A stretch of 64,000 nt of DNA from Eledone cirrhosa (Eukaryota). Below are positions 33,039-54,316 of this stretch, piece after piece. The notes under the pieces are model-generated. The model saw only the letters and a program-made list of their open reading frames with translations. It was not told the DNA's origin and did no database searches. Position numbers and translations under genes: made by a program. Location of the stretch: assembly GCA_964016885.1 (NCBI GenBank), contig OZ024741.1, positions 301,816,001 to 301,880,000 on the forward strand, read 5' to 3'. The number at the start of each line of letters is the position of its first letter. Position 1 is the first letter of the stretch.

Positions 33039-33134
33039 ACCCCGACGGCTGAGCTCAAGCCGTTTCGACGGCTAATTCTGGACTAAATGAAAATTGTTAT
33101 CCTGGTATTTGAATAGCCGAGCTTCTCAAGGGGT
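33039..33134 (-). ncRNA. U3-A8 variant hammerhead (family A)
   Basis: acccc TTGAGAA g-ct-cggcta...tagccg-t-c GAAA cggct-tgagctc-agccg TC ggggt. Confidence 0.8.
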
Positions 33135-34100
33135 AATTCCATATATGGTAAAAGTGATTGTCACAAGGATTGGTCAAAAGTTTGTTGTTGAGACATAATA
33201 ATTCTATGATGGCAATGTGTGGAGGGAAGGGGTAGCTGAACCTGCTAGTAGGAGAAAGAATGAGAGGGGATGGAGGAGACCCAATCATGCGTTGATAGTG
33301 CCGACTGCAGCTGGGCATGAGGTCAAAGAAGATACTAGGGAGGGGGAGGGGAGGAAGTTGAAACAATAAGTAGAACAATATGGGGTAAATATAACTATTT
33401 ATTTTTTTTTTTGGGGGGGGGGGATTCTGAATTAATTTTCCGTATCAAATTTTACTTATACTTCGTACGAGCTTTTATGTAGCTTGCACTAGAACTTTTG
33501 TATCGTGGCGGCACCCTTAGAGATAGTATTAGTATTCTTTTCGGGACTCTGAATTATTATTTCGTATTAGTTTACTTTTTTGCACTGGGTGGTTGCTGGC
33601 CTTGTGCCTGGGGTAGAAACCTTTATTTATTATTTCGTGGTAGTTTCTTTAGTATGTTGGCCCCTCACTTGTTGACCCGTCACCGTAAGATATACTCGGT
33701 TTATTACTTATACCTCTTAAAAGGGTCTCATTATAATTCCGTCCTACCTAGTATACCTTTCTTTAGCCTAGCAATACCAGTGAGAGACTTAGGTCGTAGT
33801 AACCAGAAATTGTTTTTTTTTTTTTTTACATTTAATTGCTTTTTAACACTCTCGGTATTTTTCTATATATTTACCCCATATTGTTTTACTTATTGTTTCG
33901 ACTTCCTCCCCCTCCCTCTCCCTAGTATCTTCTTTGACCTCATGCCCAGCTTTAGTCGGCACTATCAACGCATGATTGGGTCTCCTCCACCCCTCTCCCT
34001 CTTTCTCCGACTGGCAGGTTCAGCTACCCCTTCCCTCCACAAATTGCCATCATACTTTTGACCAATCCTTGTAACAATCACTTTTACCATATATGGAATT

Positions 34101-34196
34101 ACCTCTTGAGAAGCTCAGCTATTCAAATACCAGGATAAAAATTTTCATTTAGTCCAGAATTAGCCGTCGAAATGGCTTGAGCTCAGCCGTCGGGGT
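34101..34196 (+). ncRNA. U3-A8 variant hammerhead (family A), slightly decayed
   Basis: acctc TTGAGAA g...c GAAA tggct..agccg TC ggggt. Confidence 0.7.
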
Positions 34197-34287
34197 CCTA
34201 CTCGTTCCTATTACCCACTCTACTACCCTAAGTATTGAGTACTTTGGTGCGTTATGGTCCACCTGGTTCCTTACCACATTTCCTCCG

Positions 34288-34328
<41 letters not shown>

Positions 34329-34331
<3 letters not shown>

Positions 34332-50546: not shown

Positions 50547-50640
50547 ACCCCTTGAGAAGCTCGGCTATTTAAATACCAGGATAAATTTTCATTTAGTCCA
50601 GAATTAGCCGTCGAAACGGCTTGAGCTCAGACGTCGGGGT
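50547..50640 (+). ncRNA. U3-A8 variant hammerhead (family A), one stem III mismatch
   Basis: acccc TTGAGAA g...c GAAA cggct..agacg TC ggggt. Confidence 0.72.
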
Positions 50641-50650
50641 CTTACTGGTT

Positions 50651-50720
<70 letters not shown>

Positions 50721-50722
<2 letters not shown>

Positions 50723-53700
50723 AAAGTAAAAATCAAAATCAAAAACAAAATAGAATAAAAAAGGGGGACGTGTTGACAACGATAGGTGTGAGTGTGTGTG
50801 GGCGGGGGGAATAAATGAAAACAACTTGAATATAAACAAATACACAAGATATGCATATTCATATATATACACAAGATATGCATATACATATATATATACA
50901 CAAGATATGCATATACATATATATACACATACATACACATATACACATATACATGCATATATACCTATACACACATGCAAACACACGTATATATGTGTAT
51001 ATATATGTGTATATATATATAAAATAAATATACGTACACATACACATACATGTGCATACATATATATATATATACACATATATACACACATACATACACA
51101 CATATATATACACACATACAAACATACATATACACACACATCCACATGCATACACATACAAAAGAAACACTACAATAAATTAGATAAATGAATCTCAAAC
51201 GTACATAACCCACGTATATATGTACACATACGCGTGCGCACACACGCAATAACAAATAAACACACGCATACAAATAACCATATACGTAAATCCATACACA
51301 CAAATATACACATATATTCAAAACCATATATACAAACACATGCATACATATATACATATACATATAAACAAATATATACATATATATATATACAAACACA
51401 CACACATATATATATATATATACACACAGACACACACATACATATAAATATAAAAACACGTATATATGTAAGTACACATAAACCTGTCTGCATATGCGCC
51501 CACATACAACTTTATGTGAGTACACAAAAACTTAGTGGGTAAGTAAGGACAAAGGGAAGTAAAACTGAAATAAAATAATAAAAACAATTATTAAGAACAG
51601 GTAAGGGAGAAAAGGGGTGTAAAGTTGTAGTAGAGAGTAAGTGTTTGTGATGAGATCTGGATATATAGTTAAAAAGTGATCTGGGTAAAGGATAAAGGTG
51701 GTGGGTGTGTATGTATTAAAGGTATGGTAGATAGTAGGTGTGGATATAAGTTAAATGATATATAGAAAGAGATGACGGAGAAAAAGTATATATTGGTAGA
51801 AAGTATGTGTTCATAAGGTAATGAAATTGGTAGTGAGTGGAAGGCGTGATAAGTAAATAAGAAACTCAAGGTCGTTGAGTAATCGTTGGTATGTTAATCC
51901 AGTTAAAAAGTAGATCCAATTTCAGGTGCGGACAACATCTAAAGATCTCGGTCTTAGAGTTGAGACAAGTGGTAGGGGTTTTCAAGTTTTGGAGAATTTT
52001 AAAATTTTCCGTAGTACACAAAGAACATTTCTTTGTGCCTCTTTGGTATTCTCTTGAATGGTCTAAAATAGACCAATCAATAGTGTACGGGATGTTTTTG
52101 TCTTTGAACTCCCACACTTTATTTGCCAGTGCCGTTCCTGTTCTTTTTTCGGGGTGTTTGAAAGAAGCGACATGTGCTTAATACCTGGTTTAAAATCTGT
52201 CCTGAGTCATGACAACATATCGTCACTCCTGGCTGGCTGGTTATTAATCATTGGTGTCAATTTAGCCTCATACACAATAGATTTGGTATTACATTTACCC
52301 TGTAATAGACATTCTTCCGGCTTCCTGCAACTGCATCCTGGATTTACTCTAGTACCATTAGAGTTGGTAATTTTAGTTTTCATTGATGGGCAGCAAGAGT
52401 AACTGATTTTAACTACATTTCTATTGAATATCTATATAACATTTCCAATTTTAAACACTACAAATACTTTCGTTTTTTTTGACAAAACCAAAAATCTTTT
52501 TGAAGTAAATAATAATTCGTATAACCAACTTTTAACAGATAGCATTACGGCTAAATATCAAATAGCTAACATTAATACTTACAATACCATTAATAATGAA
52601 GCTAAAGCCCTAGCTAGTACCTTAAAATTAGACAACTGGATGGAAAGCCTAGCTAAACGTAAAGAATATATTACCCTTAAAGACCTAGTTGTAGACTAAA
52701 TTAGCCCTGCTAAATCTGAAATTGGCCTTGCGAGTAAAAAAATCTTAAGAAAAATAATACTTCAAATAAGAACTATGACTGACTTATCTCAATGATTAAA
52801 TACATCCTCTGCTATTTCTTGGTTTAATATACAAGGAAAAAATAAGTGTATATTTACCAAATTTGATATTGTTGATTTTTTTCCCCTCTATCACTGAATC
52901 CTTATTAACAAAAGCCTTAGATTTTGCTAGACTTTTCATTAATATTTCTAAATTAGAAGAAGACGTTATCTTTCACGCTAGGAAAACACTACTCTTTGCT
53001 AATGAAGTTACTTGGGTTAAAAAATCAAGCCCTGAAAACTCTTTTGATGTTGCGATGGGCTCATATGATAGTGCCGATGTGTGCGACTTAGTAGGATTAT
53101 TACTCCTCCACACCCTTAGAGAGAAATTTCATTGCCATAATATCGGTTTATACCGAGACGACGGTTTGGCAGTTTCTCATACCACCAACGGCCATAACCT
53201 TGGTAAATTCCGTAAAGACTTAATCAATACTTTTGCTAACCTAAACCTTAAAATTACTATAGATACGAATCTTACTAATACTAACTTTCTTGATATCAAT
53301 CTTGACCTACTTACCGCCTCTTTTAAACCTTATCATAAACCTAATGAAAATTTAAGATATATACACAAAGAGTCATACCATCCACCTATAATCTTTAAAA
53401 ATCTTATTCCTAATATTAGCCGTAGGATTTCTACCTTATCTTCGTCTTTAGACATTTTTAACAAAGCCGCCCTTATTATAATAAAGCCCTCAATAACAGC
53501 GGCTTCACCGAACAAATTAAATATTTAGCTACTCCTCTTTCTAACACTAAACACAATAACAGGAAAATAAAAATTATTTGGTTTAAGCCCCCCCCCCCCC
53601 TTCTCTCTCTAACTGTTAAAACTAACGTGGGAAGAAAATTCCTCGACCTCCTTAACAAACATTTTCCCCCTTATCATAGATATAATAAGATATTCAATAG

Positions 53701-54316
53701 AAATTTAGTTAAAATCAGTTACTCTTGCTGCCCATCAATGAAAACTAAAATTACACACTCTAATGGCACTAGAGTAAATCCAGGATGCAGTTGTAGGAAG
53801 CCGGAAGAATGCCCATGACAGGGTAAATGTAATACCAAATCTATTGTGTATGAGGCCAAATTGACACCAATGATTAAGAACCAGCCAGCCATGAATTAAC
53901 GATATGTTGGCATGACTCGGGACAGATTTTAAACCAGGTATTAAGCACATGTCTCTTCTTTCAAACACCCTGAAAAAAGAACAGCAACGGCGCTGGCAAA
54001 TAAAGTGTGGGAGTTCAAAGACAAAAACATCCCGTACACTATTGATTGGTCTATTTTAGACCATTCAAGAGAATACCAAGGAGGCATGAAGAAATGTTCT
54101 TTGTGTACTACCCCTACCTCCCACCAAATGCCATGATAGATTTATCTGTCTTTATAACAAATATTAACCAATCATCTTGACAATTACTATCTTCCTATAT
54201 AAGGAAATTCCCCTTGAGAAGTTTGGCTATTTATTTACCAGGCTAAAAATTCTTATTTAGTCCAGAAATAGCCGTCGAAACGGCTTGAGCTCTGCCGTCG
54301 GGGTCATACTTGTTCC
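50721..54316. mobile_element. Divergent Hydra-like PLE pair sharing the family A terminus
   Basis: Minus arm to 52433 (EN 51866-52433); plus arm 52434-54316 with FDVAMGSYDSA, GLYRDDGL, CSCRKPEEC and a deletion near 54110; left boundary uncertain. Confidence 0.85.
54210..54304 (+). ncRNA. U3-A8 variant hammerhead, divergent copy
   Basis: cccc TTGAGAA g-tt-tggctattt...aaatagccg-t-c GAAA cggc..gccg TC gggg. Confidence 0.78.

Follow-up and report, generated by a model that had tools for sequence, protein, structure and literature searches.

Whether the hammerhead ribozymes of Penelope-like elements (PLEs) cut RNA in vivo, and for what purpose, is described as open in the available text of two accounts (PMC7761336; PMC8557442). 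Natural hammerheads with a U3-A8 core pair are described as active in vitro (PMC3088659), and about 1,300 matches with this core are reported among the PLE hammerheads of Schistosoma mansoni (PMC4209133). The Hydra clade of these retrotransposons is recognised by one open reading frame (ORF) bearing a reverse transcriptase (RT) and then a C-terminal GIY-YIG domain, RWK and DKT signatures, a CxCx5C linker, CxxC and CxH motifs, and the lack of a CCHH motif (PMC8557442). A 64,000-nucleotide stretch of the Eledone cirrhosa genome (assembly GCA_964016885.1, contig OZ024741.1, positions 301,816,001 to 301,880,000 of the forward strand; hereafter the window) carries a U3-A8 type I hammerhead in the terminal repeat of a Hydra-clade PLE. 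This ribozyme probably cuts its RNA after C17 in the cell, most plausibly as a double hammerhead. A first-pass annotation of the window had asked whether the motif was already described; its U3-A8 core is published for PLEs (PMC4209133).

All seven hammerhead motifs named in that annotation are present by pattern match and coordinates (Table 1). At up to two mismatches the hammerhead pattern matches 12 places in the window, seven of them in the family, against a mean of 3.6 in shuffled sequence. The annotation had listed seven copies while omitting that three lie on the minus strand; comparison of the window with itself gives three inverted pairs and one single copy, so the motifs represent four insertion events. 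Four 5'-truncated half copies (6322/6374 and 61762/61819) had been missed. In the 5' half, a 4-bp stem I is followed by UUGANAA, G10.1-C11.1, a 2x1 internal loop and a 6-bp stem II; in the 3' half, a loop II of ~38 nt with a small inner hairpin leads to GAAA, stem III, UC and the second strand of stem I. The 3-8 pair is Watson-Crick (U3/A8) in 7/7 window copies, as in a type I core. Five copies retain the complete conserved core, stems I-III and GUC, while the 'minor decay' attributed to the others amounts to helix-breaking damage in stems I and II of the 34102 copy and in stem III of the 50548 copy. The three helices, with an open stem I, are found in the five intact copies, and 89% of cells are paired across 26 sequences. 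Stem III is full, as claimed, but measures 6 bp with A15.1-U16.1; the claimed 5 bp applies just to the copy at 54 kb. The lengthened stem II of that copy is real but belongs to its whole lineage, which has also lost one stem III pair. In the 46405 copy the predicted cut falls after C46493, the position proposed earlier, which is the predicted C17.

Rfam returned no hammerhead match for 46380-46520 at E up to 10, and no hammerhead among the matches listed (150 of 272) for the whole window. The long loop II and the variant core may lie behind this miss. A CUGANGA descriptor would also pass over the 46405 copy, in line with the expectation that CTGANGA-based searches would miss it.

The motifs lie downstream of a ~1.1-kb untranslated region (UTR), itself preceded by an ORF with RT and GIY-YIG domains. 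At another locus of the genome (L561) stands a complete direct tandem with a unit of 3,118 nt and a 719-amino-acid ORF whose ATG stands 190 nt after C17; this ORF carries RWR, DKT, YRDD, CNCPDRSIC, CNLC and CKH, has a single Cys between VIY and YIG, and lacks CCHH. By these signatures the main family is a member of the Hydra clade. The earlier placement of the hammerhead in a Penelope-like terminal repeat is supported. The insertion traits of the clade are present as well, namely (TA)n targets, tandem and inverted insertions and an optional tail, although the unit of 3.1 kb slightly exceeds the published <3 kb. Insertions of the family stop either ~20 or ~100 nt past C17, comparable to the two internal RT starts of the Anolis element (PMC11167929). 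Pfam gave no match for two window fragments of the main-family ORF. Every core-bearing copy examined that reached a matching ORF belongs to one family (81-99% identity). The repeat holding the 54210 copy begins at 54108 and is fused to an ORF of a different family, with about 33-49% protein identity to the main one. Within L561 (2778-5136, plus strand), the ORF's frame already opens inside stem III, 67 codons ahead of the first ATG, and stays open up to the stop codon. The UTR of the 38581/46405 insertion contains an expanded tandem repeat of ~28-30 bp (38980-39300 and 45790-46100).

Genome-wide counts, taken in the 3.0-Gb genome, give at least 7,400 core-bearing matches. A 22-mer of the 3' half of the motif has 54,367 exact matches, with the 5' core present in only 7 of 30 sampled. 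A tail-pattern search for tandems found none in 30 of 230 loci; the L561 tandem came from listed positions. Classification as a retrozyme not derived from long-terminal-repeat elements, which implies non-coding tandem repeats of 150-300 bp that each hold a hammerhead, was rejected: each copy is either an inverted stub or the end of an element that codes for protein.

The case for cleavage in the cell turns on where insertions stop. Pattern counts of long-end copies broken at the predicted site, 4 nt upstream and 4 nt downstream are 594, 119 and 132, and inspection by eye accepted 24, 20 and 22 of 30 sampled copies, respectively, as true truncations or deletions (script labels for the same samples: 23, 18 and 18). 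Among 664 tight inverted junctions, 99 were read (the first 100 rows, one locus being duplicated), and 64 of their 198 arms start at G1.1 (31 long, 33 short). In the 45 junctions with inserted bases, 55/90 arms begin at G1.1, or +1 (28 long, 27 short), and no arm ends at -1. Both arms begin at G1.1 with 1-6 untemplated, mostly A/T bases between them in 22/99 junctions. A twin sequence before GAAA, 22 nt upstream of the site and with the same seven preceding bases, served as control: in the 50 of its 834 junctions that were read, 1/100 arms and 0/50 junctions fall at the equivalent position (Fisher 2e-12 and 1e-4 against the site). Perfect CCCC-GGGG joins were dropped as evidence of cleavage, since CG microhomology explains the 12 observed (4/50 at the twin site, p=0.58). 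A single-arm scan returned 2,670 matches mixed with indel variants, from which no count was drawn. The truncation spike at C17-G1.1 lends self-cleavage indirect genomic support and is probably a trace of cutting in vivo followed by run-off of the reverse transcriptase.

Most truncations lie elsewhere. At least 10,678 loci are head-to-head stubs of ~200 bp joined in loop II. In the first 50 of these, every one of the 100 arm ends lies between 1 and 13 nt upstream of the 3' arm of stem II. Start sites may cluster in this band, or the RT may stop there; as to a start site, which would leave a cap-derived extra G, a G stands beside 12/30 arms in an unbiased set and 6/26 at incidental loci. The tight-junction class extrapolates to ~430 arm ends at G1.1 (664 x 64/99); the loop II class has more than 21,000, so a few percent of templates would have been cut. 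Because only a few percent of insertions would stem from cut RNA, cleavage looks partial and not required for insertion.

From the observed anatomy, family, copy counts and excess of 5' ends at G1.1, the following course may be proposed. Hammerhead cleavage would leave an RNA beginning at G1.1, on which reverse transcription would start ~20 and ~100 nt downstream, on both target strands; the two cDNAs would run off at G1.1, gain untemplated A/T bases and join head to head. The ribozyme itself would be switched on when the two palindromic stems III of tandem repeats, 3,118 nt apart, pair with each other. A cut 190 nt upstream of the start codon would strip the cap or release a unit-length RNA.

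Predicted folding favours the dimer. The stem II 3' arm repeats the stem III 3' arm (identical 7-base repeats), and a hairpin that traps GAAA therefore competes with the hammerhead; a single ribozyme is predicted to fold mostly into this inactive form, and the consensus structure of the alignment is the decoy fold. Stem III and its loop form a near-palindrome with a predicted 18-bp self-duplex of -30.7 kcal/mol. In unconstrained folding of 20 distinct intact U3 sequences, the monomer is predicted as a hammerhead in 7/20 and the dimer as a double hammerhead in 20/20. Among 12 C3 sequences, stems II and III together appear in 0 monomers and 10 predicted dimers. A half copy truncated in loop II is also predicted to co-fold with a full copy through stem III. 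The contrast drawn earlier with minimal PLE hammerheads holds as regards the full stem III, but this stem, a near-palindrome, does not turn the motif into a stand-alone monomer, and the monomer is predicted to misfold. At L204, L218 and in rows of the single-arm scan, internal deletions between the identical 7-base repeats have removed GAAA and stem III.

A possible but doubtful alternative is that the ribozyme cuts in vivo as a monomer that the element's protein or tertiary contacts refold, the palindrome being incidental. In the five intact copies the active monomer is predicted to exceed the ensemble by just 2.3-3.4 kcal/mol, 4/5 U3 monomers of the second lineage are predicted to fold as hammerheads, the loop-permutation control described below is weak, and protein-assisted cleavage is published for the hammerhead of Anolis Poseidon (PMC11167929). 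However, the dimer is preferred by a predicted 11-14 kcal/mol, a palindromic stem III is general among PLE hammerheads, which are reported to act as dimers, and of the two lineages the one with the better palindrome has the stronger spike despite its worse monomer folding.

That last comparison bears equally on an improbable second alternative, in which the reverse transcriptase stalls at the base of stem III, or of its duplex, on uncleaved RNA, with no need for cutting in vivo. The site adjoins stem III, and the spike is stronger where stem III is stronger (22/99 against 8/99 junctions with both arms at G1.1 and an insert, by eye; in the weaker lineage, 2 of the first 30 by script, and six rows of that set are duplicates of one junction). 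A far larger and broader stop band also exists in loop II (10,678 junctions), where there is no cleavage site. Yet a stall where the helix begins should leave C17 in place (-1), or give an end at +2 for an extended hairpin, whereas 55/90 arms of the junctions with inserts end at +1 and none at -1; the twin site, which lies beside the decoy hairpin, has no spike; and the same tendency is seen in a minimal hammerhead that nearly lacks stem III. In that unrelated PLE family (32752), 4/5 junctions lie at a distance of 0-2 nt from the predicted cut, A/T bases leaving some ambiguity.

It is very improbable that the motif is a catalytically dead relic retained through overlap with a promoter or RT-binding site: the C3/A8 mismatch did not block amplification to at least 1,800 copies, covariation is lacking and the 5' half is missing from most copies, but the motif is at least 83% alike across lineages while the neighbouring UTR drops to about 70%, changes between subfamilies are confined to N7, position 3 and loop bases, the 3-8 pair was regained at least once, and the spike falls on the scissile bond.

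Several observations weigh against cleavage by a double hammerhead in the cell. One microhomology class makes up 28/50 of the junctions in the twin control. Without a Watson-Crick 3-8 pair, the core of the C3/A8 subfamily of 1,800 should be impaired; nevertheless the tail variant of the mostly C3/A8 class is present in site-truncated copies (linkage from 13 loci), at the same time a hint that the mismatched core also cut. In the predicted C3 dimers stem I is slipped, and 0/12 pass a strict test. In the loop-permutation control 72/630 permutations dimerise as well as the real loop, which makes the palindrome modestly special; given that any hairpin can dimerise, dimer dependence is a prediction. 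Stems I-III, for which the first-pass annotation had counted a lack of covariation as a refutation, contain no compensatory change in 26 hand-picked aligned copies, an alignment with little power at 91% identity. In a second hammerhead family of the window (27365), ~3-4 of ~11 truncations are at the site by eye; this control comprised 3 loci at first, and later rows were mostly subfamily variants. Finally, the Anolis element is reported to insert without need of cleavage, with no reads ending at the site (PMC11167929, in the text available).

Positions 3 and 8 have changed within the family. Exact 18-base patterns, whose reversed controls gave 0 matches, count 5,580 U3/A8, 1,800 C3/A8, 55 U3/G8 and 13 C3/G8 cores genome-wide, which contradicts the claim that N7 is the sole varying core position. 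Nor do the two partners change together, as had been supposed: C3/G8 is observed 13 times against 17.7 expected under independent change, and covariation of the pair was rejected, the double change being no commoner than under independence. The C3/G8 matches (11/13 in the family) are scattered within the C3 grade of the tree. C3/A8 is a true amplified subfamily, often found in both arms of one insertion. G7 accompanies C3 in 1,732/1,800 copies; in the first 100 U3 rows it was counted by eye in 53. Ancestry alone can give this preference.

In a tree of 71 of 98 copies, with near-identical matches thinned and short copies dropped, the history of position 3 needs exactly two changes. The tree is a ladder: a U3 clade stands at either end (support 100/99 and 100/97), the C3 grade lies in the middle, and the ORF tree shows the same ladder. 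Between the arms of one insertion, median divergence is 1.4% over 10 pairs in the U3 clade to which all window copies but one of the seven belong, 3.1% (8 pairs) and 4.2% (4 pairs) in C3 groups, and 3.4% (3 pairs) in the other U3 clade; the latest step was therefore from C3/A8 to U3/A8. By these ages, the youngest U3 clade is derived from the amplified, mismatched C3/A8 subfamily. Rooting with an ORF outgroup places the root at the youngest end with 68/64 support, in conflict with the arm-to-arm ages. Whether the 3-8 pair was regained a second time depends on the root of the tree. Because published Hydra-clade motifs are all CTGANGA, a path from C3-G8 through C3/A8 to U3-A8 is suggested.

The window contains further elements (Table 1). 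The canonical family at 27292-27372 has a stem III of 5 bp that is not palindromic, and its tail end resembles that of the main family; a first look gave 2,071 candidates genome-wide. Other Hydra-like PLE fragments, with ~28-49% protein identity to the main family, lie at 23685-24488 (-), 40953-41297 (-), 52560-54130 (+), 55500-56759 (+) and 62944-63999 (-). Decayed non-LTR reverse transcriptase ORFs (Pfam RVT_1) occupy 17266-20409 (+) and 36258-37697 (-).

Table 1. Hammerhead motifs and associated features of the window (positions counted from its first nucleotide; cleavage and folding features are predictions).
Feature	Position	Strand	Remarks
Type I hammerhead motif	46405..46497	+	intact; core UUGACAA (U3 46409, A8 46414, G12 46471)
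Loop II band of 5'-truncation	46448..46460	+	1-13 nt upstream of stem II 3' arm; most genomic copies
Predicted decoy hairpin	46464..46479	+	stem II 3' arm and stem III 5' arm; GAAA trapped
Stem III	46474..46492	+	6-bp hairpin; 19 nt form a near-perfect palindrome
Element 3' end	46498..46590	+	short end ~20 nt, long end (tail) ~100 nt past C17, then (TA)n
Hammerhead	33040..33133	-	intact; core UUGAGAA; C17 33044
Hammerhead	34102..34195	+	damaged in stems I and II; inverted partner of 33040; C17 34191
Hammerhead	38581..38673	-	intact; identical to 46405, inverted arm of same insertion; C17 38585
Hammerhead	46764..46855	-	intact; core UUGAGAA; C17 46768
Hammerhead	50548..50639	+	stem III mismatch; inverted partner of 46764; C17 50635
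Hammerhead, second lineage	54210..54303	+	longer stem II, 5-bp stem III, weaker palindrome; C17 54299
Inverted stub	6219..6417	.	two 3' halves (6322/6374) head to head in loop II
Inverted stub	61659..61862	.	two 3' halves (61762/61819); same kind as 6219..6417
5'-truncated ORF, main family	43253..44470	-	arm ending at 38581
5'-truncated ORF, main family	44508..45275	+	arm ending at 46405
Decayed RT plus GIY-YIG ORF of Hydra-clade element	47530..49383	+	DKT, CxCx5C, no CCHH
Second hammerhead family	27292-27372	-	canonical CUGAUGA core, 7-bp stem I, long stem II
Minimal hammerhead, CUGAAGAG core	32748-32790	+	C3-G8; downstream of Neptune-like ORF 31191-32546
Decayed copy of minimal CUGAAGAG hammerhead	near 54900-54955	-	

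Counting truncations at a predicted scissile bond needs only a genome assembly and is applicable to any PLE family, so the question of in-vivo cleavage becomes directly testable. A bolder reading, offered tentatively and unlikely to hold in full, is that PLE insertions keep a base-precise record of germline cleavage, and that the present ribozyme, locked by its decoy and activated by dimerisation, stayed active through C3/A8 (perhaps with G7 in place of G8) and regained U-A twice independently. If true, the insertion record would give a readout of in-vivo activity for each subfamily. With its C3/A8 and U3/A8 cores, four states of N7, palindromes both strong and weak, and thousands of datable copies, the family is also a mutational series made by nature, suited to studying how a ribozyme core passes through a mismatched intermediate.

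The U3-A8 core itself is known; what is provisionally new is the likely footprint of in-vivo cleavage and the mismatch intermediate. The literature compared, mostly titles and the openings of abstracts and including parts of PMC6765202, PMC2920678 and bioRxiv 10.64898/2026.07.22.740005, contained no report of a truncation peak at a PLE hammerhead site, of a natural C3/A8 subfamily or of a decoy-plus-palindrome design, and novelty is provisional to that extent.

Among described systems, the Cercyon PLEs of Schistosoma mansoni share the type I fold, the U3-A8 core, residence in PLE terminal repeats, thousands of dispersed copies, G10.1-C11.1 and a palindromic stem III region (PMC4209133). In their hammerheads a base is added between 9 and 10.1 and stem III is nearly lacking, features absent from the main family. 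The main-family core is 7 nt long; a 2x1 internal loop follows 10.1-11.1, loop II spans ~38 nt, stem III is a near-palindrome of 19 nt, and a decoy hairpin is predicted. More generally, minimal PLE hammerheads have 0-2 bp of stem III and an extra base at 9/10, in place of which 6 bp and the 7-nt core are found here; the dimer-capable palindromic stem III is shared, as the predicted 18-bp self-duplex indicates. Hydra-clade hammerheads likewise lie near the 3' end of elements with (TA)n targets (PMC8557442). The motifs in File S2 of that study are all CTGANGA with a 3-4 bp stem III and a 1-3 nt loop, none of them U3-A8 or C3/A8, and a main-family 14-mer has no match in the supplement. In the R2, L1Tc and RTE elements, cleavage is likewise thought to set the 5' end of retrotransposon RNA, but by ribozymes resembling that of hepatitis delta virus or by twister ribozymes at the true 5' end (PMC7761336), whereas the hammerhead of the main family lies in a repeat and would account for a minority of 5' ends. 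The PAc hammerhead of Anolis Poseidon likewise has two internal RT starts downstream, which yield short and long ends, and insertions that run through an uncut site (PMC11167929). It differs in its C3-G8 core and in an ORF that begins inside the ribozyme, the main-family ATG being 190 nt downstream; and while the available text on PAc gives no sign of cleavage in vivo, main-family insertions pile up at the site.

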